64,000 nucleotides of DNA from NCBI GenBank assembly GCA_965223905.1, contig CBDCXV010000001.1:1408001-1472000 (forward strand), in the 5' to 3' direction. Position 1 is the first letter of the stretch. The number at the start of each line of letters is the position of its first letter. The stretch is from Candidatus Latescibacterota bacterium (lineage in GTDB: Bacteria; Latescibacterota; UBA2968; UBA8231). The notes below the pieces were generated by a model. That model ran no database searches, was not told where the DNA came from, and saw only the letters and a list, made by a program, of their open reading frames with translations. Positions 29,929 to 46,973 of this stretch are shown here, in pieces. The position numbers and the translations under genes were made by a program.

Positions 29929-30122
29929 GCGGATTCAGCGACCCCGTGCCCTGCGGCTCGTCAGAAGCCGGCGGTCTGCGGTTGGACGGACCCGCTGATC
30001 CAATCGAGGGGAGTACCGAGTAACCGCGAGGTACCCCTTCCAACCAAAGCCCGGCCTCCCACCGGGCTTCGCAGACCATCGCCGAATGGCTTCGGCTCCC
30101 CTGACAGAAACTGGTTGCCCCG

Positions 30123-31097
30123 ATGAGACAGATCGTTAGACAGCTCGACATACTGCGGACCCTGCATGCCCGGCGTTACGGAATGACCGTACGCGAGCTT
30201 GCGGAGGAGTACGATGTAACGGTGCGCACCGTGCAGCGCGACCTGATTGACCTGCGGGAGGCCGGGTTCATACTGGGGGAAAAACGCCGCAACAGTCGCG
30301 TCTACTACCAGCTACAGAAAGAGACCGGGATGCCGATGAACTTCCCGGTCATGGAAGTCGCGGCCATGATCTTTGCCGAGCGCGCCGGCCTGGGCCTGGT
30401 GGGGACCCCGTTCGGAGAGCATCTGCGCTCGGCCGTCCGCAGGCTGACCGAGACGATGCCCCAGGAGGGGCGGCGATTCTTCGAGCGGGCCGCCGAGGCC
30501 TACGTGCCGCTGGCACGCGGGCACAAGCCGTACGAGGAGGCCCGGGAACTGCTCGAGAAACTGCACGATGCCATTCTCGAGCGCCGCGTCTGCCGGGTGA
30601 GCTACCGCTCGCCGGGAGCGGAGGGCGCAAAGCAGTACGAGATCGAACCGCTGCGCCTGATGCATTACCGGGGCGGCCTGTACGTGATCTCCCGGGTGCC
30701 TTACTACGACAGCCTGATCACTCAGGCCGTTGAACGCTTTGAGTCCGTAGAGGCGACGGGGGAGACGTTCGAGCCGCCGGACCACCTGCCGATCGACGAG
30801 CGGGTGAGCGATGCTTTCGGGGTTTCGTACGAGGAGCCGATGGAGGTGGCGGTCCGGTTTACGGGGGAACAGGCCCCATATATAAGGGAAAGGATCTGGC
30901 ACCCCAGCCAGGAGCTGGAGGAGCTGCCGGACGGGCGGGTGGTGCTGCGGCTGCGGGCAGGCGGGTTCTACGAGATCAGGAGCTGGGTGCTGAGCTTCGG
31001 AGCCGCGGCCGAGGTGCTGGAGCCGGCGGAGCTGCGGGAGGCGGTTCGTGAGGAGATGCGGTCGGCGCTGGGGCTGGATACCGGGGGTGCGACATGA
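30123..31097 (+). CDS. WYL-domain transcriptional regulator (wHTH-WYL-WCX; PafB/DriD/BrxR-like)
   Basis: N-terminal HTH ELAEEYDVTVRTVQRDL, SYRS..YEIEPLRL..GLYV, ERIWHPSQ, WVLSFGAAAEVLEPAELR. Confidence 0.92.
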   Translation: MRQIVRQLDILRTLHARRYGMTVRELAEEYDVTVRTVQRDLIDLREAGFILGEKRRNSRVYYQLQKETGMPMNFPVMEVAAMIFAERAGLGLVGTPFGEHLRSAVRRLTETMPQEGRRFFERAAEAYVPLARGHKPYEEARELLEKLHDAILERRVCRVSYRSPGAEGAKQYEIEPLRLMHYRGGLYVISRVPYYDSLITQAVERFESVEATGETFEPPDHLPIDERVSDAFGVSYEEPMEVAVRFTGEQAPYIRERIWHPSQELEELPDGRVVLRLRAGGFYEIRSWVLSFGAAAEVLEPAELREAVREEMRSALGLDTGGAT

Positions 31098-31106
31098 TCT
31101 GTCGCA
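31088..31106 (+). promoter_or_regulatory. Palindromic box 1 (putative WYL site)
   Basis: TGCGAC-ATGATCT-GTCGCA, overlapping the WYL stop codon and upstream of 31143. Confidence 0.75.
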
Positions 31107-31142
31107 GGCTTCATTTTCCTCTTGGAAAGGAGCGGATGACCC

Positions 31143-31724
31143 ATGGACCTCATACAAGACAAGGAGACCAAGATGAGAGACCTGACGCCCGAGGACGAGA
31201 AGTATCTTGTAGAATACTGCATGCAACCGGAGAATACCTGGCTTGCCCTGGCCATCGGACAGATACAACCAGAACTAAAAGGAAAAATTGTCTCCACGTT
31301 TGTGCGGAAACTCGACGAAAGTGTAAAAGAAGCACTAAAGAATATCGAGATGTGCGGCTTTCGCTTGGAGACATGCGTTCCGGAAACGAAGCTGGAAGAG
31401 AAAAAAACATACTCGCTATTCATTTTGAAGGTTCAAAGAATCGAAATACATCTCGGCATTTGGGGTGGCGGATACTTGCTGGTGAAAATGCCTGCAGGAA
31501 CGGAGCTAGACCCCCGATGGGATGAAGTCATTTCGGACATGGGCGTCAAGCTAAAAAGCAGTGCTAGTGGGTGTTGGTTCGATGCGGAAGAAAGGCACCA
31601 TATCCGGAGCGTTGAAGCCCTGATCGCGCTGCAGGATGACGAGATCAGAGGAGAGAAGATCGCGTACTTCACTGACATATTGGTGCGTCTTGTGAGGAAC
31701 ATTCTGAAGGTACTGGAGGCTTGA
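31143..31724 (+). CDS. Hypothetical protein resembling the C-terminal half of PDDEXK_4-type nucleases
   Basis: Lower GC; LVEYCMQPENTWLAL...IVSTFVRKL resembles the post-nuclease region of 37798-38982. Confidence 0.55.
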   Translation: MDLIQDKETKMRDLTPEDEKYLVEYCMQPENTWLALAIGQIQPELKGKIVSTFVRKLDESVKEALKNIEMCGFRLETCVPETKLEEKKTYSLFILKVQRIEIHLGIWGGGYLLVKMPAGTELDPRWDEVISDMGVKLKSSASGCWFDAEERHHIRSVEALIALQDDEIRGEKIAYFTDILVRLVRNILKVLEA

Positions 31725-32616
31725 AGATGCCGGAGGACACGGGGTTTGAGGAGGAGACTCGACGATTCCTCGGGAATGCGAGGAGAGGTCTAGAAGATCG
31801 GAGGAATGATCGCATTAGAAGACTTAAGGAGGAGTCTCCACGCTTTTTCGAGGGCGCCAGGCAAGGTCTTCACGTCCTGCGGCCAGTCGCAATTGAGCTT
31901 GATCGCCACTTGGCCAGAAAGTTCGACTTGATCGCCACTTGGCCAGAAAGTTCGACTGTTTCCGTTTCATCCATCTTGACGAAAACCGCATGTCCGATGT
32001 CTTCGCCTACCTCCTCGATCCTGAGGAAACCCACGGGCAACGAAAGCTGTTCCTGAGAGAATTCCTTTCACATGTGTTTCCGAAGGGGTTAGTCGGATAC
32101 CCAAGGTCTGGTGTTCGAATTGGTCGAGAAATGAGGACCACTCGGATAGAAGACTGGGACCGAAGAATCGATATTGAAATTGCTTTCCGCACCAACGGTG
32201 GCTTGGCGGCTATCGCTATTGAGAATAAGCCTTGGGCGGGCGATCAAGAAAACCAACTCAGCGACTACGCCCGACATCTCGAATTGAAATACAAAGGTCG
32301 CTTCAACTTGATCTACCTCACGCCGAAAGGGGAAGATCCATCGGAGAATAGTATCAAGCCCGAGAAGCGCGAGAAGCTTTCGAAGGAAGGAAAGCTTGCC
32401 AATGCCTCGATCCAGGACTGGGCAAGTGACCATGGTTGGCTGAAGCGAGGAGAAGATGGGGTGAAAGCCGAGCGAGTTCGCTGGTTCGTGTCCGATTTCC
32501 GCAAAGCGCTGATCGAGAGCCTTCCGGAGCTTGGCTGGGCTTACGAAGAACCGCCATTCTCGGATCAGGATACTGATCCTACGGGTCCACCAACCCTCCT
32601 TGCCGAGATAGCATAA
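31721..32616 (+). pseudogene. PD-(D/E)XK (PDDEXK_4-like) nuclease domain gene, frameshifted by a 29-bp duplication
   Basis: ENRMSDVFAYLLDP..HGQ, RIDI, IENKPWAGDQENQLSDY, IYLTPKG. Confidence 0.8.
31898..31955 (+). repeat. Perfect 29-bp tandem duplication
   Basis: CTTGATCGCCACTTGGCCAGAAAGTTCGA x2. Confidence 0.95.
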
Positions 32617-32798
32617 GGACGATGATCAGAACCGCCGGTTTGTAACGAGGTCGATCCTGTAAGGGCCGAACAACACCGGCTGTAGCGAGCAGACAGTGAG
32701 GTAACGGCCGGGCTTGTGCGCTGGTTCATGTCCGATTTCGCAAGACCCTGATCGGGAGCATCCCCGCGAAGGACGGGCTCGCGGAAAAAATCCGATCT

Positions 32799-32832
32799 CG
32801 CGTCATGATCTGTCGCACCCCCGGGGTAGGTT
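32799..32832 (+). promoter_or_regulatory. Box 2 plus -10-like hexamer
   Basis: CGCGTC-ATGATCT-GTCGCA; TGTCGC-N10-TAGGTT. Confidence 0.7.
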
Positions 32833-33029
32833 CAATCCTTACCCACAGTTGAAGCCATTCGCGGATCGATCCCGATACCCGGTCGGCGGGCGCGAGCGAC
32901 CTGCCTTTGGCTCGGAATTTGCATGCTCCCGGGTGGCCGGGCGCTGTGGCAACCAATCCATGGAACCTACCACAGACGTCGACGCGAGGTTTCCAAGTGA
33001 GGCACCCAACACGCGAACCTGATGAAGCC

Positions 33030-35137
33030 ATGCTCACCCCCTACGAACGGAAGCGTCTCTTCTTCTATATGCGCAACCTTGCCTCGCGTATTCACCGGGA
33101 AAGTCTGGAGGCAACGGGGCTTGCCCAGTGGATCGCGGAAAACCGGGACTTGATGGGGCTGGAGTGCGGGAAAAAGGAGACGGAAGAGTTGGAACTGTAC
33201 AAGCTCCGGGCCGGGAAGTCCCTCGACAAGGAACTTTCCAAGAAGGATTGGCAGCGCCTCATGAGGACTCTTGAGACCGGGTACCTGACGGCGCCTTCCT
33301 GTGAGGGTGCTAAGGAAGACCTCACGGCGAGGCGGCTAAGACAGCTCGGAAAGGCTATGGACTTCGCCCCCGAGGATGTCGCGATTCTGGAGATCCTGAT
33401 ATGCAGTCTAACCCAGCCGGAAATCGGTTCGCTGATCGATTCTCTTTGGGAATCCGTACCTCTCCACTTTCGACGCAGGTGTTTCAATGTTTCGAACCCC
33501 TTGCTGCCCCGGGTCCTCGGCATCTCGACCGGTATTTTCCGCGCCCGTTTGGCGACCGATGCGCCTCTCTTAAGGTCAGGGTTGGTGTCCATAGACGACG
33601 ACGGAGACATCGAAACCGTCAAGAGGCTGAACAGGCTGGTCGCCGTCGTGGACGACGGCGACCCGGACGTGCGCCACCTGCTGCTGGTTACGGCGACCCC
33701 GGGGGAACTGGAGTGGGAAGACTTCGACCATGTCGCGGAGCAACGGGACCATATCGAAAAGGTGCTGAAGGGCGCCCTGAGTTCCCGCGCCAAGGGGGTT
33801 AACGTCCTTGTGTATGGACCGCCGGGAACCGGAAAGACCGAGTTCTGCAAGACTCTGGCCATCCGGCTGCAGGCGTACCTCTACAGTGTGGGCGAATCGG
33901 AGGGAGAGGGTGACGAACCATGCCGGCGGAAACGTCTCCAGGAGCTTCAGGTTGCCCAGAACTTGCTGGCTCCCGGCCACGGTGCCATGCTCCTCTTCGA
34001 TGAGATGGAGGACCTGCTTTCCGACCCGAGTTCTGGCTGGATACCCTTTTCCTCGCACGGCTTTTCCCCGCTCCGGTCCGGCGGCTCAAAGGTGTACCTG
34101 AACAGGCTGCTCGAACGCGCCACGGTGCCGACGCTCTGGACCTCGAACTCGGCCAGGGAGACATGTCCCGCGGTTCTGCGGCGCATGACCTTCGCCCTGG
34201 AGCTGCGGCGTCCCACGCGCAGGACCCGGGCGCGAATATGGAACCGGGAGCTGGAACGCCACGGCATCGGAGCGACGGAGGAGGATGGCAAATCTCTTGC
34301 AAAGGAGTTCGACGTTGCACCGGGCGTTGCTTCCGGGGCCATCTCTGCGGCGAGCCTCTGCGGTGGTGACCTCGCTGCAGTGCGCCTTGGGGTGCAAAGC
34401 CTGTCCCGGGTGGTTTCAGGGGAGAAGCCGGATAACCAGGAGGCACCGGAGAGATTCGACCCCGCCCTGATCCGGGCAGACACCGATCCTGTCGGGTTTG
34501 CCGAACGTCTCGAAAAAACCGGGGGGGGAAGCAATTCTCCCTCTGCCTGCAAGGTCCGCCCGGCACCGGAAAGAGCGCCTTCGTCCGCTACCTGGCCGAG
34601 CGCCTCGGCCTCCAGGTCACCCAGAAGCGGGCCTCCGACCTGATGTCGATGTGGGTCGGAGGAACCGAACGGCTTATCGCCGAAGCCTTCGCTGAGGCGC
34701 GCGTCGAAGGCTCTATCCTCGTCTTCGATGAGGCCGACTCGCTGCTCGCCGACAGACGGGGTGCCGTGAGTTCCTGGGAGGTCAGCCAAGTCAACGAAAT
34801 GCTGACCTGGATGGAGAGCCACCCCCTGCCCTTCGCCTGCACGACCAACTTCGGCGAGAACCTCGACCCTGCCACCCTGCGTCGATTCACCTTCAAGATC
34901 AAGCTCGATTACCTCGCCCCAGGACAGTCCAAGAGGGCATTCCGGTCCTATTTTGCGCTCGATGCTCCATCCGAACTGGAGAACCTGACCAACCTGACCC
35001 CGGGGGACTTCGCGGTTGTGCGCCGAAAGGCAGAGATACTCGGCAGCCTCCAGGACCCGAAGGTTCTCGCCGAATTGCTGGGAGCCGAGTGTGAGGCCAA
35101 GCCGGACCATCGGCGCAAAATCGGTTTTCGGACGTAA
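33030..35137 (+). pseudogene. Tandem-AAA ATPase, frameshifted in a G8 tract (34521-34528)
   Basis: First AAA: GPPGTGKT and LLFDEMED. Second AAA, in another frame: QGPPGTGKS, LVFDEADS, LDPATLRRF, C-terminal KIGF. Confidence 0.85.
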
Positions 35138-35584
35138 GTGGTGGACTGATTCCGGGGAAAGAGTAGAAGCACAAAGAAAAAGGGCACCTGACCTCATTTG
35201 GTGGTCCCGGAATTGCTGCCGTAGTTTCTGGCCTGCGAGGGTTTGGAACCAACGCAAAAGTCCAGTTGTTTGACAGAGAGCGTGAGTTATTTGCTAATTA
35301 GGGGCGTTGGATAGCAGCCCCTGACGATCCGACCCCAAGGCCGGCAATTCATTCAGAAACAAGGAGTTATGGCCTTGCCGCGGGGCTGTCATGAGGTGAT
35401 CTTAATACCTCATCTGGTATAAGGCGCCCATCACCCGAGAGTAGGAGAGGACGTAGGAAATCTATCACCTAATGACCTGGAGAAAATCCATGCGTTCAAC
35501 GGTGACCATTTCCAAGCAAGAATTGATCCTAATTCTGATCTGGATATGGCTGATTATTGAGTAAAAGAGAGATGGGAAAGGAAT

Positions 35585-36451
35585 ATGCCTTTCCCATCCA
35601 CAGGAGGATCCCACATGACTACGGCAATCAAGAGGGGTAAAACCCGGGCCCCGAAAGTCGGGAACCTATCCCAAATGACAATCTCCAGATTCTTTTTTCT
35701 CATCGCACTTCCGGCATGCACTGGCTGTGCTACCATGCTTTCAGGAACAAGCCAGAAAATCCCTGTAGCCTCTACTCCAATCGGCGCAGAAGTCATCGTA
35801 AATGGGAAGTCAGTAGGAAAGACACCCCTTGTCATTGAATTAAAGCGAAAGGACCCTGCTACCATCACTCTGCAGGCAGAGGGATACAAGTCGCATACGA
35901 CTATCCTTCAAAGGAAACGTAGTGGTTGGTTCTGGCTTATTCCTACAATCTACGGCATACCTTCCCTTATTGTGGATGTGGTCACCGGAGCAGCTTACGT
36001 ATTGGAGCCTAAGACTGTGAATATTGACTTCAATCCTCCTGAACCTGTAGGTCCCGATCCCGATCCTGTAATTGAGACTCAGACCAAACCAAGCCCAGAT
36101 AACCAGGGATTCCAGTACTCCAATGTGACTATGGCTCAGAGAAGCAACCCACTTCTCGGACAGTCAGGTGTGGGTTACATGGGAGAAATTACGAATAACT
36201 CTGGTAAGGATTATTATTTCGCCACTTTCAAGATCAGCTTATATGGAAAAGACGGAGGGCTCATTGCCATCCAGGAATTCACCGTATTTGAAATAGCAAA
36301 CGGAACCACACAGAGCTTCGACACTGGACCCATTCTGGATTCAGCGTTGAAGGATCAAGTCGAATCGTTCAGAGTACGGTTTGGTGGAGGGATGGAACAA
36401 AAGGAAGCAGAACAGATGGATAAATTATTAGAGAAGCAACTTACAGAGTAA
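35585..36451 (+). CDS. PEGA-domain lipoprotein-like protein with an FxLYD-like C-domain
   Basis: TGCATM, STPIGAEVIVNG..GKTP, GEITNNSG, FKISLYGKDG; lower GC; start position uncertain. Confidence 0.7.
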   Translation: MPFPSTGGSHMTTAIKRGKTRAPKVGNLSQMTISRFFFLIALPACTGCATMLSGTSQKIPVASTPIGAEVIVNGKSVGKTPLVIELKRKDPATITLQAEGYKSHTTILQRKRSGWFWLIPTIYGIPSLIVDVVTGAAYVLEPKTVNIDFNPPEPVGPDPDPVIETQTKPSPDNQGFQYSNVTMAQRSNPLLGQSGVGYMGEITNNSGKDYYFATFKISLYGKDGGLIAIQEFTVFEIANGTTQSFDTGPILDSALKDQVESFRVRFGGGMEQKEAEQMDKLLEKQLTE

Positions 36452-36537
36452 GGGAAAGCGGCAAAATGACTGATCAGACACCTGCACCAGACGACAGCGG
36501 CAAGAAGAAGATGGGGCGCCCTGAGTGGTTCCTGAAG

Positions 36538-37761
36538 GTAACCGTTCAGTTCCCTGGCAGATTGGGGCCGGGGGCGGAATGGTCGCAGGTTGGTATTAGC
36601 GAATGGGGGAGTGGGTTGAAGGCAGCAGCGAGGGCGCCGGCTGCTGACACACGGCGGCGTCACAGGCCATCCTGAGATAGTCGAGGACGTTGCGCTTTTG
36701 CTGGCGCAGGGTATCGCGCACCGTGAGCAGGCGCTCTACGAAACGGCTGCCTTCGGCACTGTGAGTGCCGAAGCTGGTGTGACGCCACAACACGCCATGG
36801 CGAAGGGCTCGTTCGGCTTCCGTTGTTGGTCGGCTCGACGCCGGGCCGGCGTGCGGCGAATGGAGAACACGGTGACGCCGTCCGTCACCGCGGTCCACAA
36901 CCAGGCCTTGGCGCGGCCCTGCCGCCAGCCGGTCTCGTCGACGTTGACTATGCCCTGTCGGCGAACGAAGGCGCGCGCCTCCTCGACCGCACCCGCCAGG
37001 GGGTCGCAGCCACTTCCTGTTCCAGTCGGCTGACGGTGCCCAGCGACACCTTGAAGCCAAAGGCGTCGGACAACAACGCCCGGATGTTGCGCTTGCTCAG
37101 CCGGTAGGCCCCGGCCAGCAGGCCGATCCAGGCCTGCACGCTGGGCCGTAGGTGTGCCGCGATACGCCCTCGGGCCAACCGGCTGCGGTCAGGCGGTCGC
37201 AGTGACCGCAGCGCAAGGTGTGCAGCTGATACTCGATGACCTCGGCCCGCAGCGGCGAGATGACGACTTCCTGGTGGCGCTGCGGATGGGGATCGTCTCC
37301 CGTCAACCGGTGCCCGCATCCGTGGCACGTACTCGGCTTGACCGGGATCCGTTCGTCCACTTGCTCGACCGATACCCACGAGCGCCCGTGCCCTTCGTGC
37401 CCGGGCTGCCCGCCCGGCGAGCGCCCCGAGGACCGGCGTCGGCCGGAGGCATCGGTACGCCGCGTGGAGGAACCCGACGAGGAGGTTTGAGCGCCACGGC
37501 GGGATCGCCCCTTGCGACGGGCCAATTCCTACTCCAACTCGGCGATGCGGGACGTCTGTTGTTCCACGATCCGCTCGAGCTGGACAATGCGCTTCCGCAA
37601 GTCGCCTTCGGACATCGCACTCTCAGGAGGTCTTTTCATGGGGTTGCCCGTGTCCGGAGAATCTGCAACACACAACCAATCCGAAGATACCGACGAACCC
37701 GAAAACCCGCTTAGGTATTTCTTTACATGCGCAAACTACTGCAGGGGGACTGAACGGTTAC
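36538..37761 (-). mobile_element. IS66-family element, internally deleted and degenerate
   Basis: Inverted repeats GTAACCGTTCAGTTCCCTGGCAG and GTAACCGTTCAGTCCCCCTGCAG. Transposase fragments (GGQPGHEG, CHGCG, DETGW, AERALR..V..R) carry stops and frameshifts. No target duplication is visible. Confidence 0.85.
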
Positions 37762-37797
37762 GAACCAACGGCCAGGTTCCGAGGAAGGAGCGGACTC

Positions 37798-38982
37798 ATG
37801 ATCGACGGTAGATTTTTGCAGTTGTTATTGGATGCAGCCAAGCATTTTGGTGAGCATGGGGCCGGACAGCCGGCCTTCAACGTCTTCTCGGTTCTGCACA
37901 AAGAAACCGATGAGGTGAATCTCCACTCCCGGTTTCTCCATGCCCTTCTCGACCACCGACACGGTGGGCACCGAAAAAACCTGGAACATTTTTTGGGGCA
38001 GCTTCCAAGCAAGCCCTCAGTTGATGCACGGGGTATTGATCCAGACCGCGCAGAAGTAAAAAGGGAGAGCGACAATATCGACATCCTGATTCGTGATCCC
38101 GACCCTACTTCCAAGCGTGCCCTGATTGTCGAGAATAAGATCGGGGCCCCGGATCAAAGCCGGCAACTGTGGAGGTACGCCAAACAACAGAAGACGGAAG
38201 GGTACTCACCTCATCTGCTGTACCTTACGCTGGATGGGCACGCTCCTTCTGAAGACAGCAGGCGCTGCCTGGATTACGAATGTATTTCCCTTATCTCCTA
38301 CAAGGAGCACCTTCTCCCTTGGTTGAAACATTGCCAGGAACGGGCATACAACGATCCCACACTGCGGGAGTCGATTGGCCAATACCTGTCCTTGGTCGCG
38401 GCTCTGACAAAAACGGAGGCATATATGAATGACTTGAAGAATCTTTGCATGGAAGACAAACATCTTCATCTTGGCCTCATTCATGACTTGAACAAGGCCA
38501 TGATTGAATCGAGGGTTTCCTTGTTCGAACAGCTTTGGAATGAAATCGAATGTAAGCTGCAGAAAGAGATTGTGGAGCTCCCCCACAAAGTGGAAGATAA
38601 CGTATCCAAAAAAAGAATTGAAAATTTTGTCACACCCAGAAGCGAGTCTCACGACCTATATTCTGGATGGCACGGGAAATACTATAAGCTTAAAGGTTCC
38701 GCCAAGCTCAGCGTTGAAATTGGCGACACTATGCACTTTGGGGTCAAATGTCGCCAGAGTGAAGACGAATACTGCAAGTTCCTCGAAGCACTCAAAGGAG
38801 AAGGTGGCAGTAGTAATAGTGGATGGGGATTTGTCAAAGAAGTAGATCCGCGGATGAGGGAGCCAACCTCAGAGAACTTCGAGCTGCTTACGAATAGACA
38901 AGCTAGGGAGAAGTATGTCGCCGAAATCGTGTCTGGCGTACGTGAGTTGTGGCTGAAAATCAAGAAGGCAAACCTTGCCTGA
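37798..38982 (+). CDS. PD-(D/E)XK (PDDEXK_4-like) nuclease, full length
   Basis: FNVFSVL, EVNLHSRFL, NIDILI, IVENKIGAPDQSRQLWRY, YLTLDG. Confidence 0.85.
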   Translation: MIDGRFLQLLLDAAKHFGEHGAGQPAFNVFSVLHKETDEVNLHSRFLHALLDHRHGGHRKNLEHFLGQLPSKPSVDARGIDPDRAEVKRESDNIDILIRDPDPTSKRALIVENKIGAPDQSRQLWRYAKQQKTEGYSPHLLYLTLDGHAPSEDSRRCLDYECISLISYKEHLLPWLKHCQERAYNDPTLRESIGQYLSLVAALTKTEAYMNDLKNLCMEDKHLHLGLIHDLNKAMIESRVSLFEQLWNEIECKLQKEIVELPHKVEDNVSKKRIENFVTPRSESHDLYSGWHGKYYKLKGSAKLSVEIGDTMHFGVKCRQSEDEYCKFLEALKGEGGSSNSGWGFVKEVDPRMREPTSENFELLTNRQAREKYVAEIVSGVRELWLKIKKANLA

Positions 38983-39041
38983 CCGCCGAACGGATCGAGT
39001 AGATAGATTTTGCCCCTCGGGTTGTCGATGGACCTCTTGTA

Positions 39042-39368
39042 CTATGCCCTCAGCAAGCGCCGCTGCAGCAACGTCTGCATGTCCCGCCTCCCATCTGCGA
39101 TCACGAGCACGTAGACGTTGTTTTCGATCACCCGGTAGATGATGCGGTAGGGCTTTAAGAAAATCTCACGGTAATCCAGAACCCCGATGTCCAGCAGGTT
39201 CTCCGGATAGTTCCCCCGCTCGGGAAAATCCGAAAGGGTGGTGAAGGCTTTTTCCACCTGCTTCAGCACCCGGTTCGCTCGGCCGGGCGCACCATGCCGG
39301 TCGATGTAATCGCATATCTCCTCCAAGTCGCGGGTCGCGTCATCGGTCAACTGGACCTGGTAGGACAT
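39042..39368 (-). CDS. ParE/RelE family toxin
   Basis: ATRDLEEICDYI, FPERG, YRIIYRV. Confidence 0.88.
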   Translation of the reverse strand: MSYQVQLTDDATRDLEEICDYIDRHGAPGRANRVLKQVEKAFTTLSDFPERGNYPENLLDIGVLDYREIFLKPYRIIYRVIENNVYVLVIADGRRDMQTLLQRRLLRA

Positions 39369-39643
39369 CAGCGGGCCTGACCCCGCTCGCGGATCCGTGC
39401 GACGACATCGGAAGCAGGCTGAACCTGACCCGCTTCGATCTGCCGGTTGCCCAGCGCGAGGATCTTGAGCAGCGCAAGGGTTTCCTGCATCTGTTCGTAG
39501 CTGTCGATATCCTGCATGACCGCCTTGGCTTCGCCATTCTGGGTGATGATCAACGGTTCCTGTTGGTCCCCAAGAGTGCGCACAATCTCAGCGGCGTGGG
39601 ACTTGAGGTAACTGATCGGCTTGATTTGGCTGGACAGCTTCAT
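39368..39643 (-). CDS. Phd/YefM family antitoxin
   Basis: IKPISYLKSHAAEI, PLIITQNGEAKAV. Confidence 0.88.
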   Translation of the reverse strand: MKLSSQIKPISYLKSHAAEIVRTLGDQQEPLIITQNGEAKAVMQDIDSYEQMQETLALLKILALGNRQIEAGQVQPASDVVARIRERGQAR

Positions 39644-39795
39644 GGACCACCTCCTTTCGGACTGAATATGGACCATAAACAGGTCAACACAAGGCCCGGA
39701 CTGATCGGAGTTCCTGTCGGGAATTGATAGCCTGCCTGAGAGCCGGAATTGGATCCCCCCGGATAAATCAGGGCAACCTCCCGAAATGTCCCGGC

Positions 39796-39829
39796 CGCGA
39801 CGCGATCTGTCGCACCCGGGGCGGAGATT
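39796..39829 (+). promoter_or_regulatory. Box 3 plus -10-like hexamer
   Basis: CGCGAC-GCGATCT-GTCGCA; TGTCGC-N10-GAGATT. Confidence 0.7.
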
Positions 39830-39869
39830 GAGAAAACTCACGGACGTATCCAAACCAGGGAGACGTGCA

Positions 39870-40412
39870 ATGCGTATGAGTTTTTCTCTTTTCTCTGCCC
39901 TGCTGGCAGCCGCCCTCGCCGCCTGCGAGGGTCCCACGGGACCGATGGGGCCGCAGGGAGAAACCGGTCCGCAAGGGAGACAAGGTGAAATCGGATCACA
40001 GGGAGAACGCGGATCTCAAGGCGAACGGGGGCCGCAAGGGGAAGCCGGACTCCGGGGCGAACCCGGACCGCCCGCGGAAGGGGTCATCATCGATTGGAGA
40101 CTGGCAGGTTCATCCTACGACCTGGACGGCAACATCAACATAGAGGATGACAGGATCACTCCGACCACTTTCCGGGTGCTTTACCTGAAGGCCGAATTCG
40201 GGTCTGACATTGTAGCATACGTTCCCCTTGACTACATGCTGGTGTCCGAGGTTTCGATCGTATCCGAGATGGAAGAGCTGGAGACGCCGGTCCTCTTCAT
40301 CGCCGAGGGCAGGCTCCTGATCGTGGATCCCAACCGGGTCCTTCTTCGCGTCGCGCTGGAATCTTCGCTCGAAGGAGTTGATGTCGACCTGGCGGTTCTG
40401 GTTTCGCATTAG
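39870..40412 (+). CDS. Collagen-like lipoprotein
   Basis: Lipobox LAAC followed by ~16 Gly-X-Y triplets. Confidence 0.8.
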   Translation: MRMSFSLFSALLAAALAACEGPTGPMGPQGETGPQGRQGEIGSQGERGSQGERGPQGEAGLRGEPGPPAEGVIIDWRLAGSSYDLDGNINIEDDRITPTTFRVLYLKAEFGSDIVAYVPLDYMLVSEVSIVSEMEELETPVLFIAEGRLLIVDPNRVLLRVALESSLEGVDVDLAVLVSH

Positions 40413-40704
40413 GGGTGCCGGGTTTATTGGCGGGGCAGTTGCGCTGCTGTCCGCCGGGGATGTGGTCATGAACCGGCAGTACGAACTCGGACCGATAACC
40501 GTGCAGTGCGTCTCGACAGCGTCCGGGGCTGCCGCACCGGCCTGCCCCATTATGAACCGTTGGCATTCCCTGGAACTCCCTGCGGGCGGGGGTGTCCTCT
40601 AAGGTCAGGGTGTTTTGCGGAATAGAGGGTCGGTGTGGTCAAATTGTCGATCCCGTTGAAGCAGGCCCTTCTCCAAGCGATAGTCGCAATTCGGAGGTAA
40701 ACCG

Positions 40705-41502
40705 ATGCGCACAAGAATTTCATTTCTCGCTTTTCTGTGGGCCATTCCCATTGCCTCCTGTGATGGGCCGGCGGGACCGGACGGGGACAAGTACCTCGAG
40801 ACAAGGGAAGTAACGGTCGGCCCGACCCTGGCCAGATGCTACGGCGTCGGTGAACGGTCCTGCATGGTGGTCGACGGCTTCCTCTTCTACGATGCCATTG
40901 AGGGCTTCGAATACGAGGCGGGCTACGACTACCGGCTGCGGATCGGGAAATACGACCCCTGGGGCGGAGAGGAACCGCCGCAGGACGCCGGCCAGTGCAG
41001 CTATCGTCTGCTGAAACAGCTGGAGAAGACCCCCGCTCCCTCCACTCCCGCGAGCCTGTCTCTTGGACCCACCCGGGTGAAATGCGCGCAGATCGACGAC
41101 TTCTGTCTGCTGATCGACGGCGCCCCGTACGATGACATTGTCACCAAATTCGAATACGAGGCCGGCTTTCACTATACCCTTGACGCAAATAGGTACGGGG
41201 ATGGCAGGTACGTATTGAATTCGGTGACCTCGAAAACGGAAGCGACCGGTACGGAAGAGGAGATAACCGTGGAGCCGCACAGGATAGAGTGCGGCAGCAG
41301 CGACCGGGTGTACTGCAACGTGGTCAATGGAGAGGCGTTCCACAGCGAAATCGTCGGTTTCGAGCCGTGGCACGGTTACAGCTACCGCCTGAGGGTCGAA
41401 CGCTTCGACATGTTCGCCGGTGGCGTTACTGCCTCGTCATCCGGCGTTCCAGACTATGGTTATCGATGGCTCGAGACGTTGGAACGAAGTCCCGCCGACT
41501 GA
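40705..41502 (+). CDS. Lipoprotein with three DUF4377-like repeats
   Basis: IASC lipobox; three copies of vtV.P....C......C..v.G......I..Fey..Gy.Y.L. Confidence 0.75.
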   Translation: MRTRISFLAFLWAIPIASCDGPAGPDGDKYLETREVTVGPTLARCYGVGERSCMVVDGFLFYDAIEGFEYEAGYDYRLRIGKYDPWGGEEPPQDAGQCSYRLLKQLEKTPAPSTPASLSLGPTRVKCAQIDDFCLLIDGAPYDDIVTKFEYEAGFHYTLDANRYGDGRYVLNSVTSKTEATGTEEEITVEPHRIECGSSDRVYCNVVNGEAFHSEIVGFEPWHGYSYRLRVERFDMFAGGVTASSSGVPDYGYRWLETLERSPAD

Positions 41503-41627
41503 TACCCACCTGACCGCGGCCAAGGGTGCGGGGCCGGCGGCCTCGAGGTCCCCTGGCCGCAGAAGCGCCTGCTCCTGCGAAATCGATCCGTTTGTCAGCC
41601 ACCCCGTAACCTGAGTCCTCGAGCCGG

Positions 41628-42371
41628 TTATTCCTCTGGACACGGATCGTCCCCGGGGAAGCTGAGTGTGTCCCCGCCGATCCAGGACAGGACCCGCTGG
41701 CGCAGATGCACCTCGACGTCGAGGATCGAGGGCCGCTGCTCGTTGACGCCGCCCATGCGCAGCAGGTAGCAGTCGATCAGGGGGGCGTCGGCCCTGAACC
41801 GGCTTATGGCCTGCATGGTCACCCCGATCCCGCTCGAACAGAGTATCTCCAGCAGATTGCGGATGCGCACTTCCTGCTGGGCCCCGTGGCCCCGGGTTCC
41901 CGGTTCCAGCTCTTCGTAGTGATCCCGGAATTCCGAGGACACTGCCCTGAAGAACAGCAGCAAGAGCACTTGCCGGTCGAAGGGGGTCAGGCGGCAACGC
42001 CTTACGAGGTCGAGGAACGGGACCACCTGCGGATCGCTCGCCTCCAGTCGCGCCTCGGAAACCCCCCCGAAGCGCAGCAACTCATGCTCCGAGGTATCGA
42101 GCCGCTGCCGCAGCTCTTCCGTCGGGATGGCCCCCTCCGGGTCGATGTACAGGCCGGAGCACCAGCGCCGCCGGCTCCGCTGGCGCACGAGGCGCCGCAG
42201 CCCGCCGCATTCCAGCTGCAGAATTGCCTCTTTTAACATCGCGTCGAGAAACTCGGGGTTTGACTTGTAGCCCCGAACCCGGAGAAGGGGTTGCGCCGCC
42301 GCCGTCATCGTCCCGCCCCCAATGAGACCGTGGTCGTCGAGGGTGCGCGGGTCGGGCTTTTTGGTGGGCAT
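41628..42371 (-). CDS. Stand-alone AAA-ATPase N-terminal (winged-helix-like) domain protein without an ATPase domain
   Basis: LTPFDRQVLLL...FRADAPLIDCYLL parallels FAPEDVAILEIL...LATDAPLLRSGLV in the 33030 protein. RBS GGAGGAG precedes the ATG. Confidence 0.6.
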   Translation of the reverse strand: MPTKKPDPRTLDDHGLIGGGTMTAAAQPLLRVRGYKSNPEFLDAMLKEAILQLECGGLRRLVRQRSRRRWCSGLYIDPEGAIPTEELRQRLDTSEHELLRFGGVSEARLEASDPQVVPFLDLVRRCRLTPFDRQVLLLLFFRAVSSEFRDHYEELEPGTRGHGAQQEVRIRNLLEILCSSGIGVTMQAISRFRADAPLIDCYLLRMGGVNEQRPSILDVEVHLRQRVLSWIGGDTLSFPGDDPCPEE

Positions 42372-42435
42372 GTCGCTCCTCCAGGAGAATGGGTTCGCTC
42401 TCGTGCAGCAAAAAGCGAACCTGTTTTCCAGGGGG

Positions 42436-42454
42436 TGCGACGGATCATGTCGCG
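42436..42454 (-). promoter_or_regulatory. Box 4
   Basis: Minus strand CGCGAC-ATGATCC-GTCGCA, ~65 bp upstream of the ATG at 42371. Confidence 0.7.
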
Positions 42455-42609
42455 GGTGGGCGACTTTGGGGGGGGTTCTGCAGGGAGGCATTCGCCCCGA
42501 AGTTCCCGGACTACGGGAGGGTCAGGCCAAGGGGAGGAAGCGAGCTATGTGGGAAAGGTATCCTGAAAGCACCAAGCCAGCGGCTTCGCCGGTGTCGGCC
42601 GGACTGAAG

Positions 42610-43947
42610 TTAAAATTCTTCCTCGGTCTCAGTCCGCCACTCCGGCGCCAAATCCCTGAAAGTCGCGCTCTCGGCGTTCCATTGCAGCTTCACCGAGCCC
42701 AGCGGGCCGTTGCGCTGTTTGGCGATGATGATTTCGGCAGTGCCTTCGAAGCTGTTGTCTTCGTGGTCTTCGATGCCGTGCATATCCGGGTGGTAGATGA
42801 ACATCACCATGTCGGCGTCTCGGTCGCCGCCCGGCTCCCGCAAGTCCGCAAGGCTTGGCCTTTCTTTAGTGCTTTCCAGTTCAGACAGGGCGAGCACTGG
42901 TACGTTCAGCTCCTGGGCAAGGCCCTTGAGGCCCCGGGAGATTTCCTGCTTGCAGGTGTAGGCTTTCGTCTGTCGACCCATCATTTCCAGAGAGTTAACG
43001 ATAGTCAGGCCGATCCCGTGCTCCCGATGCAACCGGCGCGCCTTGGCCCGGATTTCGGTTATTGAAATTCGGGAGGTATCGTCTATATAGACAGGTATTC
43101 CGGCCAGACGTTCTGCGGCGCTCCTCAGGTGAACCAATTGGTCGTCGCGGAGCCGGCCGCTGCAAAGCTTGTGCAGATCCACCTGCGCCTCCGCGCTGAG
43201 CAGTCGCCGGGCAAGCTCCATTCTGGAAGTTCTCGGGCTGAAGATTGCAACCCCGATCCCCGTTTCCACCGCGGCGTTCCGCGCCAGCGCAAGGGCGAGG
43301 GACGTTTTTCCGGCGCCCGAGGCAGCCGCAAGCAGGATAAGGTCTCCTTTTTGTAAGCCGGAGGTTATATGATCGAGCTCGATGAACCCCGTCCCGATCC
43401 CGGAGAGGGAGCCTACCCTGCTGCAGGATTGCTCAATCTGTTTTACGGCGTCGCCGATTTGCGAAGCCAGCGGCTCAAGCCCATCGACGATTTGGTTTTG
43501 GCGGATCCTGTCAAGACCTTGCGCGGCGCTTTCAAGCAGAACATCCAACTCCCTGCTGCCTTCGCGGGCTTGCTCGATGATGTCGCCGGCAGTCTCGATC
43601 ACCTTGCGCCTGAGTGCCTTGTCGAGGATGATCCGCGCGTGGGCGTCAATGTTTGCCGCGGAGGCGAACTCGATAGCCAGCCTGGCCAGGTAGACGGACC
43701 CGCCAGCCTCATGGAACTGATCACGGAGCTTGAGCTCCTCGGACAAGGTGAGCTGATCGATCGCCACCCCGCGCTCGTGTAGTTCTACCAATGCGGCGTA
43801 AATCCATTTGTGCGGGACGTGGAAAAAACAGTCCGGATCGAGGGTTGCGCTGGCGCGGTCGATGGCGCCAGGGTCTAGCATCATTGCCCCCAATACGGCC
43901 TGCTCGATCTCTATCGCCTGGGGCGGAATGTGCTGGTTGTCGGCCAT
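42610..43947 (-). CDS. dnaB: DnaB-like replicative helicase paralogue with degenerate ATPase motifs
   Basis: PPQAIEIEQAVLGAMM N-domain, TGFIELD, LKGLAQELNVPVLALS and IAKQRNGPLG are present. The canonical FSLEM reads FSPRT and IDYLQ reads VNSLE. Confidence 0.85.
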   Translation of the reverse strand: MADNQHIPPQAIEIEQAVLGAMMLDPGAIDRASATLDPDCFFHVPHKWIYAALVELHERGVAIDQLTLSEELKLRDQFHEAGGSVYLARLAIEFASAANIDAHARIILDKALRRKVIETAGDIIEQAREGSRELDVLLESAAQGLDRIRQNQIVDGLEPLASQIGDAVKQIEQSCSRVGSLSGIGTGFIELDHITSGLQKGDLILLAAASGAGKTSLALALARNAAVETGIGVAIFSPRTSRMELARRLLSAEAQVDLHKLCSGRLRDDQLVHLRSAAERLAGIPVYIDDTSRISITEIRAKARRLHREHGIGLTIVNSLEMMGRQTKAYTCKQEISRGLKGLAQELNVPVLALSELESTKERPSLADLREPGGDRDADMVMFIYHPDMHGIEDHEDNSFEGTAEIIIAKQRNGPLGSVKLQWNAESATFRDLAPEWRTETEEEF

Positions 43948-43979
43948 ATGAAATCCCGGGGCATTGGATGTATCCCAGG

Positions 43980-44013
43980 ATTATGGCCCACAGGTGCGAC
44001 AGATTGCGTCGCA
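43980..44013 (-). promoter_or_regulatory. Box 5 plus -10-like hexamer
   Basis: Minus strand TGCGAC-GCAATCT-GTCGCA; TGTCGC-N10-CATAAT, 33 bp before the dnaB-like ATG. Confidence 0.75.
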
Positions 44014-44066
44014 GGCGGAACTTTAACAGATGGGGGGTGCTATTTTTTCAGGAATCCTCATCGGGC

Positions 44067-44101
44067 AAAAAAAGCGGGGAGCGGCCAAAGCCACCCCCCG
44101 C
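44067..44101 (-). terminator. Intrinsic terminator of the TonB receptor gene
   Basis: Minus strand GCGGGGGGTGGC-TTTG-GCCGCTCCCCGC-TTTTTTT. Confidence 0.75.
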
Positions 44102-44123: not shown

Positions 44124-46683
44124 TCAGAACCGGCACCCCAGCTGCGCGAAGACCAGGCGCCCCACCTCCGGGGCGCCGACGAACGCCTGGTAGGCCCCGC
44201 CCAGCACATTGCTGACCTCGACCCGCAGCACCAGGTCCTGCTCCAGGGGCAGCCGCCAGGCCAGGTTGAGACCCAGCACGGTATAAGAATCCACCTCGCC
44301 CACGAACACCCCCGAGCTCATGGAGAAGGCGCCGGTGTAGCGCACCCGGCCGCCAGCCGACAGTCCCCACCTGCCGAAGTCGTAGTTCGCCCCGAGCTTG
44401 GCCTTGTGCCTCGGGGCGTTCAGGGCCACGTCGGCTCCCCCTTCGGAATGCAGGTACTTCAGATTCTCGAAGAAGTTGTTGTCGACGAACGAGTAGTTCC
44501 CCGTGAGCCTCCAGCGATCGTCGGGGTACCAGGCCAGACTCAGGTCCAGCCCGCGGATGGTCACGTCTTCGAAGTTGGGTAGCTCATGGTCATCGCGTAG
44601 GGATCGGAGGCCTGCTCGGGAGAGACGGTGCCGTAGGGGATGGCCGCCGCCCCCGCGGTGAGGATGCCGGCCAGCTCGTCCACCGGGGTGCCGTTGTTGT
44701 TGCCCTGCACCACCCCCGGCACCTGGGCCGCGTCCAGGGCCGCCAGGGCCCCGGCAAGTTGCGCGTTGTCCGGATCGGACAGGGCCTGCCCGATCCCCTC
44801 GCCCAGGGCCGCTCCCAGACTCTGCGGGTCGAGGAAGACATTCGGAGTCTCCACCGAAATCGCCCCGACGAAGTTCTCGATCCTCGACTGGTACAGATCG
44901 GCTGCCACTACCAGCTTGTCGGCCACCACCCCTTTGTAGCCCAGCTCGACAGTCTGAGTTATGGCCGAGTGGATGCGCGGCACGTCGTAGGCGGTTATGG
45001 GGGTAGTGCCGTCCGCCTCCACGAAGAAGAAGGACTGTCGATCCGGATCAGGCTCCTCGCCGAGTGGCTCCGACTCGATGTTCAGCCTGCCCATGACATT
45101 GCGCAGGCCGGGCAGCTGCTCCGGCACGACGCCGGGCAGGGCCTTGGCCAGCTGGGCGGCTGCCCCCTGGGCGTCTTCGGCTCCCATGCCCTGGGCCACC
45201 AGGGCGCCGCCAGCCAGTGCCTGGAAGGCCGGTCCGAGCTGAGCGAGCACCGCCTGCCTGCCGCTCCCCCACATCACGTTGGTGACCAGCGGGTGGTCCA
45301 TGGCCATGTAGCCGTCCGGCCCGATGGGATAACCGGCGTCCCCGGGGGCGAGCCCCAACAGGGAGGCCTGGCCGGCCACCAGTGGGGAGAAGGGAGAGCG
45401 GAAGAGAGGCCGGCCCCCCTCGTCCCGCCGGAAGGTGAAGCCGTAGCCGGTGCTCCTGTAGTTCCCCTGGGTCCAGATATCGATCGGCCTGAACTCTCCC
45501 AGGCCGAGGGCCGAAAAGAGGGGCGTGAAATTCGCGCTCAGCCCGAAGGGATCCCGGGCCGTTTGCAGGTCGAGGTAGAGATTGTTCGAGGTAGGTGTGC
45601 TGAACGCCCGGTTGTAGGTCAGCCGCAGGGTCTGGGTCTCCCTCGGCTTGAACACCAGAGCCGCCCGGGGGGACAGCTCGGGATCCGCGAGGCGGCTGTG
45701 GTAGTCGTAGCGCAGGGCCAGCACCAGGTCGAGCGGATCGCTCAGGGCGGTCTCGCTCTGCACGTAGCCGCCGAACTCGTTGAGGTCGTCCTCCTCCTCG
45801 TTCCCGCCCATGATGGTGCCGTCGGTGTCGGGCCGCGTCATCAGGGCGTCGAAGCCGTAGGTAAAGCGCTGGCGCTGACCCAGGCTGGAGGTGTGCTGCG
45901 CCTGGAACACGTCGAGGGAGGACCTGTCGACGACGGGAATGCCGGTGCGCAGCAGATACGTGCCGCCCGCATCGTTCCAGTTGCGGAAGGCCTGGAAGAA
46001 CCAGTCGCCGTACAGCAGCCGCAGCTGGGTGTAGTTGTACTGTCAGTCTATCGCCTGCGACGCCCCCACCCCGGTCAACCCGACCACGTCCGACTTGCTG
46101 TGCCCCGCCGCCAGTATGGCGGTCAGGTCGTCGGATGCCCGCCAGTCCAGACGCACTTCGGCACTCCGGGTCCTGGAGCCGTAGTCGCGCGGTGCCAGGG
46201 GGGGCAGATCCGCTCCCGCGTCTATCGACGCCTGCCTCAGTTCCCGGGCCTCCTCCTCCTCCGGGTCGGTGTATTCCCACTCCGTCCCCGTGTAGTACTG
46301 GCGGAGACCTTGTAACCCAGCCGGTCCCCCAACGCCCCGGCGTGCCGGAACCCGGTCTGGCGCAGGCTGCGCTCCCCCATCCCGACGTTGACGCTGGTGC
46401 CCTGCGAGGCAAAAGGGGAACGGGTGATGACGTGCATGACCCCGTCGGCGCTGTTGGGTCCGTACAGGGCCGACCCCGGCCCCAGGACCACCTCGATGCG
46501 TTCGACGTCGTCGTTGGTGAGGGGGATGAAATTGAAGGCGTTGACCCGCAGGGAGGGCACCCGTGCTATGCGATTGTCCGTCAGCGTGAGCAGGGTTCCG
46601 GAGAACACGTTGTTGAAACCGCGCACCACCGCGTTGAAACTCTGTTTCAGTTCGGCAGGCGGTGTCGTGATCTTGTCGATCAA
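44124..46683 (-). pseudogene. TonB-dependent receptor, 5'-truncated and disrupted
   Basis: Plug motif VERIEVVLGPGSALYG, barrel strands and terminal F. Frameshifts at ~46305 and ~44578, an in-frame TGA at 46043-46045, and the N-terminus is missing. Confidence 0.85.
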
Positions 46684-46973
46684 ACTGGTTGCGGCTCGTA
46701 GCGCTCGACTTCGATCTCATCCTCTCGCGCCTGGGCCTGCGCGACGTCGTAGGCAGCCTGTAACCTTATCCAGGTCTCAGTGGTAGAGCCGAAAGCCTTC
46801 GCCAACCGGACCGCCATCTCCGCCGACAGGCGAGCGTGACAGTTCACCAGGTTCGAGAGGGCTTGGCGGCTGACTCCGAGGACTTTCGCCCCCTGGGTGA
46901 CGCTGAGACCGAGCGGCTCCAGACAGGACACTCGAACGACCTTCCCGGGATGGGGTGGGTTCTTCATGGGCAT
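46680..46973 (-). CDS. higA: HigA-family antitoxin (HTH)
   Basis: MKNPPHPG, LGVSRQALSNLVN, EMAVRLAKAFG, WIRLQAAYD. Confidence 0.9.
   Translation of the reverse strand: MPMKNPPHPGKVVRVSCLEPLGLSVTQGAKVLGVSRQALSNLVNCHARLSAEMAVRLAKAFGSTTETWIRLQAAYDVAQAQAREDEIEVERYEPQPV

Follow-up and report, generated by a model that had tools for sequence, protein, structure and literature searches.

Are the five copies of a 19-bp box in an island headed by a WYL-domain gene the operator-promoters of that gene's product, and if so, what would they control? The island lies at positions 30123–44013 of a 64,000-nucleotide stretch of Candidatus Latescibacterota DNA (assembly GCA_965223905.1, contig CBDCXV010000001.1, positions 1,408,001 to 1,472,000). 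We call this whole stretch the window; it is part of contig C1 of a genome of 7,924,944 bases in 11 contigs. The evidence assembled below makes it likely that the WYL protein is a DriD-like activator whose regulon is private to it and made up of variable cassettes, a few of them in trans.

All five boxes (Table 1) were located exactly where the initial annotation had placed them. Read toward the downstream gene, they follow the consensus YGCGWC-RYRATCY-GTCGCA, and all have the half-sites GCG(A/T)C-N7-GTCGC, in line with the DriD-type CGAC-N7-GTCG arrangement suggested earlier. The asymmetric core flips with the orientation of the downstream gene in all five, again as described. The window has 4 exact copies of GCGAC-N7-GTCGC where 0.21 would be expected, a count that 0 of 100 shuffles reaches, and the oriented 17-mer GCGWCRYRATCYGTCGC, with up to two mismatches allowed, gives 5 matches, all of them without mismatch, where 0.78 would be expected, a number attained by 1 of 100 shuffles. 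Across the 7.9-Mb genome the strict 19-mer has 5 copies, all within the island, which agrees with the earlier remark that no copy was seen in intergenic DNA outside it. The two nearest look-alikes, on contig C10, sit within a repeated coding element and have other flanks; near-matches on contigs C10 and C11 were rejected as further sites, being coding sequence.

The bare palindrome behaves differently from the core-bearing form. Its count in the window with one mismatch allowed, 8, is no more than background (7.42 expected), and across the genome its 23 exact copies are close to the 18 of the reversed control, which is what would be seen if the boxes were a chance or generic genome repeat without function. 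That explanation is refuted by the core-bearing form, which is confined to the island, occurs at 91 sites across the phylum against 3 for the reversed control, and is tied both to the regulator gene and to a −10 element at a fixed distance; we assign it a negligible probability. Because the bare palindrome is at background and the form with the core is island-only, the signal consists of the exact arms plus the shared core.

The genome-wide motif search and the look beside WYL orthologues proposed in the initial annotation were both run, the latter as a census of 168 Ca. Latescibacterota genomes with the reversed motif as control. Close orthologues of the regulator (E ≤ 1e-120, 72–94% identity) are present in 23 of the 168 genomes, and at least one exact box in 32 of them, giving 91 sites compared with 3 for the reversed control. 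Gene and box co-occur: among the 23 genomes with an orthologue, boxes (79 sites) are absent from just one, an 83%-complete assembly with the gene at a contig end. Boxes occur in 10 of the other 145 genomes (12 sites), and at least one of these ten (G148) has a WYL gene beside its boxes that falls below the E-value cut-off used. Five whole genomes contain 4, 6, 6, 1, and 2 exact boxes, with 0 for the reversed control, and all of these boxes adjoin the regulator gene except three in genome G002. This co-occurrence across the phylum supports, at the level of sequence, the proposal that the boxes are operator-promoters of the adjacent WYL regulator. A WYL clade of another genus (45–52% identical) was set aside as a source of co-variation evidence: it has a single palindrome per genome and no regulon. 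In that genus (g19, loci L008–L017), the palindrome AAAAAATCT-N3-TTTTTA lies over the WYL stop codon exactly once in each of five out of five genomes; it may correspond, as a single site, to box 1, or be just a conserved gene end.

To describe the promoter geometry, 17 loci amounting to about 354 kb were compared (the window, 15 named records, and genome G012), all with regulator orthologues 72–94% identical. A relaxed pattern identifies 49 boxes in them, 47 oriented as the regulator gene, with the cores GCGATCT (24), GTGATCT (11), ATGATCT (7), ATGATCC (3), and others (4). TAnnnT begins exactly 10 nt past TGTCGC in 34 of the 49 and nAnnnT at the same offset in 42; no other offset collects more than 6 instances of TAnnnT. 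An A-tract lies 10–13 nt 5' of the box, with A in 45 of 49. No −35 hexamer was seen at the boxes. The accessible text of PMC8635444 gives the PafBC promoter as tGTCgg(N10)tA(N3)T, with a −26 element in place of the −35, and that of PMC13004042 describes the DriD site ATACGAC(N7)GTCGTAT as overlapping the place of the −35, always equally far from the −10, with no recognisable −35. In a promoter oligonucleotide printed in the methods of the latter report and labelled F-didA there, we read CAATCT 10 nt past TGTCGC. The PafBC-type spacing to the −10 that had been proposed from the window, which is also that of DriD, is therefore borne out by the 34 of 49 boxes with TAnnnT at +10.

Within the window, the three −10-like hexamers noticed at the outset (TAGGTT, GAGATT, and CATAAT) do lie exactly 10 nt after TGTCGC, at boxes 2, 3, and 5, and the box-2 promoter class cccccggggTAGGTT is also found in G002 and G012. 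The promoters at boxes 1 and 4, two of the five, look decayed. The relatives' counterparts of box 1 carry TAATAT or TAGGTT after the regulator stop codon, a position over which a box lies in 12 of 16 assessable related loci. The counterpart of box 4 before the winged-helix domain (WHD) gene of G012 retains TAGGTT; a G002 copy is likewise decayed. The leader 3' of box 4 contains a hairpin, GGTTCGCT...AGCGAACC (window 42380–42425, minus strand; locus L048), present too in the G002 copy of the box-4 promoter.

Several other readings of the box were considered and dropped. As to a phage origin, eight viral contigs contain a single exact box apiece; all of them lack both the −10 and the A-tract context, and on a rough estimate their number is about that expected by chance. 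Dam methylation of the GATC in the core was abandoned, as the D12-methylase matches are weak and partial (about 22–23 bits). A box hairpin acting as terminator was likewise rejected, since a T-rich tail occurs at box 1 only.

The regulator carries the Pfam domains HTH_11 (residues 6–56), WYL (142–210), and WCX (238–316). Its best solved relatives are the DriD chains 8tp8 and 9pfq, matched over residues 5–316 at E 1.7e-11 with the single sequence and 1.4e-13 with a five-sequence profile, and the match to PafBC is weak (E 1.7e-3). The seven PDB chains listed at E ≤ 0.01 bear the labels DriD/DeoR-family, WYL domain-containing protein, PafBC, and, in one case, designed repeat protein. According to the accessible text of PMC10853764, DriD Arg37 and Arg41 make bidentate contacts to both half-site guanines, and their loss abolishes binding. 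Regulator residues R35 and R39 align with these two arginines and are invariant in five orthologues; Gln38 stands in the place of DriD Glu40. DNA recognition of the DriD type is well supported by these alignments. The same holds for the placement of the protein with the DriD-type activators that combine a winged helix-turn-helix (wHTH) with WYL and WCX domains, for which architecture, DNA-reading residues, site type, and promoter geometry all argue.

It is encoded by a single gene with a cupin gene and hyp193 as neighbours, with no tandem PafB/PafC-like paralogue pair; a second WYL-domain gene is present elsewhere in the genome (G000:C11:1309228-1309440). In locus L036 (a piece of OX638377.1), two regulator copies lie 8.8 kb apart, each with its own stop-codon box and with different cassettes.

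Would such a protein activate or repress? WYL regulators beside defence islands, among them BrxR and CapW, are described in the accessible text of PMC11662680 and PMC9122601 as repressors that sense single-stranded DNA (ssDNA), and a protein of this type seated over the −35 region could block constitutive promoters until a signal arrives. The surroundings of the island resemble those of defence genes (PDC-S26, ParE/Phd, AbiE, and a TIR gene), and by our own reading the core RYGATC offers a weak −35-like TGA at 16-nt spacing. Against repression, no more than 3 of 6 −35 positions match, and a sigma-70 consensus scan of the island returned 1 promoter against 4.3 expected, none at a box. The geometry is instead that of the activators PafBC and DriD, which are also the closest solved relatives, DriD first and PafBC second. 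In the window no box lies 5' of the regulator gene itself, the nearest being over its stop codon, and autorepression is thereby contradicted. We consider repression unlikely and activation, with binding of the regulator to the boxes, the better-fitting prediction.

Some observations weigh against a DriD-like activator, and the precedent of BrxR and CapW as repressors beside defence genes is one of them. The box spacer is not AT-rich, its commonest core being GCGATCT, and DriD sites differ in this respect (66 of 68 DriD motifs have an AT-rich centre in the accessible text of PMC10853764). The +10 hexamers of window boxes 1 and 4, TTCCTC and AAACAG, are not −10-like. When DriD ssDNA-contact residues were mapped by hand, about 4 of 10 were found to be retained, namely Tyr168 (Y161), Arg176 (K here, R in orthologues), Arg189 (R183), and Tyr192 (Y187); Ser172, Arg178, Arg204, Trp206, Arg207, and Tyr240 are lost. 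The residues opposite Arg204, Trp206, and Arg207 are I, Q, and A, and that opposite Arg288 is Y. No box stands at recA, uvr, or other repair genes in the genome, and in the five whole genomes none lies outside accessory cassettes, so that a feature of DNA-damage regulons is missing. Finally, the genomes and the 49 boxes share kinship, and their counts overstate independent support. Three consequences follow. Since the ssDNA pocket is partly lost, the ligand may differ from that of DriD, and ssDNA is put forward here by analogy. Since no repair gene has a box and the genome encodes LexA, the boxes do not define a general damage regulon. Given the spacer and the missing damage-regulon features, the regulator is not simply a DriD orthologue.

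With these points taken into account, we favour the following model of a DriD-like activator. The 324-aa wHTH-WYL-WCX protein would act as a homodimeric transcription activator and bind the 19-bp box, which is placed where a −35 hexamer would lie, 10 nt 5' of TAnnnT. Because the box takes the place of the −35, RNA polymerase would start only with the ligand-bound regulator on the box. Each cassette would bring its own box-promoter, such that one sensor could drive a changing set of genes, either near the regulator or elsewhere on the chromosome. The predicted regulon of the window consists of hyp193 with a PD-(D/E)XK nuclease, a tandem AAA+ ATPase, a collagen-like lipoprotein, a DnaB paralogue that appears hydrolysis-dead, and a truncated WHD gene. 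The regulon may serve an anti-phage or damage response.

In most genomes the regulator follows the core genes AcrB, PMT, ClpP, Fpg, DUF5069, and GATase, and these constant neighbours mark the locus as a hot spot of the chromosome and not as an evident mobile element. Genome G001, of the same genus, has neither regulator nor box. Between its cupin gene (which in the window extends to 29932) and its TonB receptor (window from 44071), it contains only a DUF4377 gene, 83% identical over 40677–41523, and the island edge against it falls at 44070/44071. By this layout the window island is two box-bearing insertions, 29933–40676 and 41524–44070, flanking a resident gene; the DUF4377 gene, being resident and box-less, is not a regulon output.

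Boxes are also found far from the regulator. The open reading frames (ORFs) of the 17 loci were clustered into families (F numbers), with which the distal sites can be described. G002 has a DnaB–WHD pair with two boxes 1.56 kb apart, as in the window, 2.5 Mb from its regulator, and a further distal box in the same genome precedes another WHD fragment. Distal boxes in G154, G143, and G165 precede F40, F23, F09-F02-F20-F05, F20, and F02. The distal DnaB–WHD block of G002 (L049, G002:C1:4735800-4747500) has a tyrosine recombinase gene (G002:C1:4754705-4755172) some 12 kb away and may ride on a mobile element.

Cassette gains and losses had been suggested to break at the boxes, and this holds both statistically and in metagenome contigs. 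Of the ends of BLASTN blocks (at least 200 nt, between loci), 247 of 2177 (11.3%) lie within 30 nt of a box centre, compared with 0.9% of positions. The mean is 5.0 homology ends per box, with at least one at 36 of 49, against 1.0–1.1 per control site; the controls were sites 50 nt 5' of box-less genes (263 overall, 141 downstream of the regulator), and the locus pairs are non-independent. The metagenome evidence consists of contigs, and the uncovered parts of runs X3, X4, and X7 were left uninterpreted. A 5464-nt contig about 95% like the window follows it over 29503–31106 and diverges there, exactly where box 1 ends. A junction at 44024, which is 11 nt outside box 5, recurs in contigs of four runs; among these cases is a joint, on the opposite strand, to 40413, which directly follows the stop codon of the collagen-like gene (40410–40412). 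The order of cassettes varies among the 17 loci.

These enriched homology ends, the two contig junctions, and the variable order would also be produced if the boxes were primarily integron-like recombination sites for cassette capture, with the link to WYL being one of physical linkage only. The breakpoints, however, are spread from about −40 to +50 around the box instead of falling inside the 7-bp core, and arms of 6 bp are short for a recombinase site. One junction, at direct repeat D1 (32438–32499 and 32678–32739, 77% identical), lies inside a gene 3' end and not at a box. No recombinase domain was detected in about 50 representative proteins scanned, a set that does not include all singleton ORFs. 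No tyrosine recombinase (PF00589) lies within 250 kb of the regulator in five of five genomes, a search that did not extend to serine recombinases. The dedicated site-specific recombination that the initial annotation offered as an alternative is thus without a recombinase in what was searched. It also leaves the fixed −10 spacing unexplained, and promoter-first modules combined with homologous exchange or selection would yield the same enrichment. We regard recombination sites as a very improbable primary role of the boxes. On the simplest reading, each cassette travels with its promoter, and the shared 19–40 nt would favour ordinary homologous exchange.

The genes and boxes of the island are collected in Table 1.

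Table 1. Features of the WYL-headed island, in window coordinates; box sequences are read toward the downstream gene.
Feature	Position	Strand	Description
Regulator gene	30123..31097	+	324 aa; wHTH + WYL + WCX; DriD-like
Box 1	31088-31106	+	TGCGAC-ATGATCT-GTCGCA; overlaps regulator stop codon TGA 31095-31097; no −10 at the +10 spacing
hyp193 (family F13)	31143..31724	+	Likely start ATG 31173 (MRDLTPE) behind AAGGAG, from 7-member family alignment
PD-(D/E)XK nuclease (PDDEXK_4, family F08)	31721..32616	+	Pfam PF14281, 2.3e-24; frame broken
Relic of second F08-type 3' end	32678..32790	+	Just 5' of box 2
Box 2	32799-32817	+	CGCGTC-ATGATCT-GTCGCA; −10 TAGGTT 32827-32832
Tandem AAA+ ATPase (family F02)	32907..35137	+	Likely start 33030; Pfam AAA in both parts; both Walker A/B pairs present
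PEGA-domain lipoprotein	35585..36451	+	Pfam PEGA; no box upstream
IS66-like remnant	36538..37761	-	zf-IS66; 23-nt inverted ends (repeat I5); passenger, outside regulon
394-aa PD-(D/E)XK protein	37798..38982	+	Pfam PDDEXK_4; no box
ParE toxin	39042-39368	-	Pfam
Phd/YefM antitoxin	39368-39661	-	Pfam
Box 3	39796-39814	+	CGCGAC-GCGATCT-GTCGCA; −10 GAGATT 39824-39829
Collagen-repeat lipoprotein (family F09)	39870..40412	+	Pfam Collagen; 61% identical to F09 genes of G012 and G020
DUF4377 lipoprotein	40705..41502	+	Pfam; no box
Winged-helix (PF22977) fragment	41628..42371	-	N-terminal piece of WHD-AAA protein; likely start 42371
Box 4	42436-42454	-	CGCGAC-ATGATCC-GTCGCA; AAACAG at +10, −10 decayed or shifted
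DnaB paralogue	42610..43947	-	Pfam DnaB + DnaB_C; Walker A kept
Box 5	43995-44013	-	TGCGAC-GCAATCT-GTCGCA; −10 CATAAT at 43985-43980

The box-headed modules recur across the 17 loci in a few combinations: hyp193 (F13) with the PDDEXK_4 nuclease (F08); the lipoprotein F09 with the tandem AAA+ protein F02 and the ADP-ribosylglycohydrolase F20, sometimes joined by the PDDEXK_4 protein F39; and F15, which resembles an outer-membrane-protein barrel (a weak match below the Pfam cut-off), with the DnaB paralogue F05. Further box-headed modules hold a WHD-AAA protein and the small unknowns F23, F24, F45, and F46 with an HTH_3 protein. Box-less neighbours in these loci are ParE/Phd, AbiEi/AbiEii, a CAP12/Pycsar-type TIR gene, and a DUF4143 ATPase, and the hot spot, as judged from domain matches, collects defence-type genes carrying no box. 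In several relatives, the TIR gene and AbiEi/AbiEii lie directly 5' of the regulator (L037:1756-2565; L034:8958-9910; L037:3244-4146), and in 9 related loci the ParE/Phd pair marks the distal end of the island.

Little can be assigned to hyp193. It has no Pfam, PADLOC, or NCBIfam match, its Atlas neighbours are unnamed clusters, and recognition was below the usual level. Its AlphaFold2 (AF2) model (pLDDT 72.2, pTM 0.71) has 0 Foldseek matches in the PDB at E ≤ 0.001. The best match, to the fold of the T4 MotA C-terminal domain (E 0.02, TM 0.29/0.45), was not accepted, and a derivation of hyp193 from PDC-S26, as a C-terminal half that had become separate, was rejected at an hhalign probability of 0.4%. 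The relic behind the F08 gene includes the second copy of repeat D1; in G002 and G012 a box abuts the F08 end. Assignment of the tandem AAA+ protein to IteA, CDC48, or another NCBIfam family was discarded because its scores are far below the cut-offs.

The island outputs had been said to match no named defence system. This does not hold for the box-less 394-aa nuclease, a full-length match to the PADLOC PDC-S26 candidate (PDLC04983, E 3.7e-78, residues 22–390, profile 30–408 of 413). Surface lipoproteins had also been counted among the outputs; this fits the collagen-repeat F09 gene, which is box-headed and in relatives heads an F09-F02-F20 operon, and is wrong for the DUF4377 resident. The view of the WHD fragment as an orphan AAA N-domain was confirmed by its longer WHD-AAA homologues, at least 742 aa in G012 (with an AAA domain) and at least 820 aa in G019; the fragment has no similarity to the tandem-AAA N-terminus. 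The IS66-like remnant has very high summed depth in all four metagenome runs and is, by that depth, a multi-copy element in these communities. Searches of the window for tRNA genes and Rfam families gave no match.

Two cassette genes have broken frames in the window. The F08 frame is interrupted by a perfect 29-nt tandem duplication (31898–31955) and is open for 288 codons when one copy is skipped. A short-read contig (run X1, record 2) that spans 31540–34121 with 0 mismatches and 29 gaps lacks the duplication. The tandem AAA+ gene changes frame at an apparent 1-nt loss (−1) in a G8 run (34521–34528). It occupies one frame of 687–706 aa in 4 of 4 relatives examined, and four related-strain metagenome contigs have a net +1 nt across the run. 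Of the tandem AAA originally described, both AAA modules are indeed present, and the two reading frames are one gene split in the G8 run. Other window genes are fragmented as well: the TonB-dependent receptor (44124–46720, minus strand) is split into at least 3 ORFs, and family F34 (25920–27050, plus strand) has 376 aa against 972 aa in G002. Given the intact relatives and contigs and this wider fragmentation relative to G002, both breaks are probably assembly errors and not pseudogenes. As the assembly seems indel-prone, frameshifts in the window are, without raw reads, not to be taken for pseudogenes.

The DnaB paralogue behind box 5, a conserved gene with a promoter predicted to be inducible, is the most unusual output of the regulon. 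In the window copy, SLEM has become SPRT (catalytic Glu lost), DYLQ has become NSLE (Walker B Asp lost), and SQLSR has become SELES (Arg lost); the arginine-finger motif is retained as DLREPG. The paralogues align full-length with the solved DnaB 2vye (E 1e-89). Among 11 island paralogues, Walker A is present in 11, the SLEM Glu is replaced in 10, the SQLSR Arg is lost in 10, and the DLRESG arginine finger is lost in 9, being retained only in the window and G012 copies. Walker B Asp is replaced by Asn in the window and G002 copies, and the G012 paralogue keeps all motifs. A separate housekeeping DnaB, scoring 357.9 bits against 238.5 for the island paralogue, has all four motifs. With its catalytic residues lost and a housekeeping DnaB elsewhere, the gene fits its earlier description as a pseudo-DnaB, and the island paralogue is probably hydrolysis-dead. 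A literature search on inactive DnaB paralogues returned nothing relevant.

Among known systems, DriD of Caulobacter crescentus, an SOS-independent damage-response activator, is like the present regulator in domain order, guanine-reading arginines, and control of several target promoters; it also shares, in the accessible text of the respective reports, the CGAC-N7-GTCG palindrome (PMC12392091) and a −35-overlapping site without a −35 (PMC13004042). It differs in that the spacer here contains GC and a conserved RYGATCY, the ssDNA pocket is partly unconserved, and sequence identity is low. The DriD targets are didA, bapE, recJ, and dnaG, whereas those here are accessory cassettes, and the first box here lies over the regulator stop codon, not in a divergent promoter. 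Mycobacterial PafBC uses the same promoter formula as TGTCGC(N10)TAnnnT, without a −35 (PMC8635444, in its accessible text). The PafB–PafC pair, however, reads one half-site and its regulon is the main damage response, whereas here one gene is present and both half-sites are conserved.

The WYL activator DdaA of Moraxellaceae has its motif in anti-phage (restriction-modification, CRISPR-Cas) and repair promoters, according to the accessible text of PMC12392091, and so sets a precedent for a single WYL activator connected in trans with defence genes. Its motif there is CGWCA-N5-TGWCG, and it replaces LexA and controls core repair; here LexA is present and the targets are accessory cassettes only. 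BrxR and CapW, of BREX and CBASS, are the same class of protein at the head of defence-type clusters. They are described as repressing their own operon, whereas here separate promoters have activator geometry and no box precedes the regulator. Integron arrays, too, consist of interchangeable cassettes with junctions at a short inverted-repeat site. In contrast to these, no integrase was found here, each cassette has its own promoter instead of a shared Pc, and the sites match transcription-factor half-sites. A literature search for WYL in Latescibacter returned nothing relevant. What is new is the phylum, a regulon solely of interchangeable promoter-tagged cassettes, and an output that appears to be a dead DnaB.

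A more far-reaching picture can be drawn, in which we place little confidence. The box-promoter could be both a portable plug to one nucleic-acid-sensing WYL activator and the patch at which cassettes are swapped, making the island an integrase-free, activator-gated cassette array, the regulatory counterpart of an integron. The DnaB paralogue, its most conserved output, which keeps ATP binding and has lost hydrolysis residues, could then poison replication once induced, or act as a decoy to which phage helicase loaders bind.

The known WYL activators (DriD, PafBC, and DdaA) come from a small number of cultured lineages, and the regulator described here would extend the class to an uncultured phylum, in which a whole regulon can be read from sequence as accessory cassettes tagged with an operator-promoter. 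With a defined protein, a defined 19-bp site, and a defined promoter formula, the model of a DriD-like activator is readily testable. If it is true, the gene that follows a box would give a rule for finding new inducible effectors, the variable island would represent a natural case of modular promoter tagging, and the conserved DnaB paralogues, no longer capable of hydrolysis, would form a family whose promoter is inducible.

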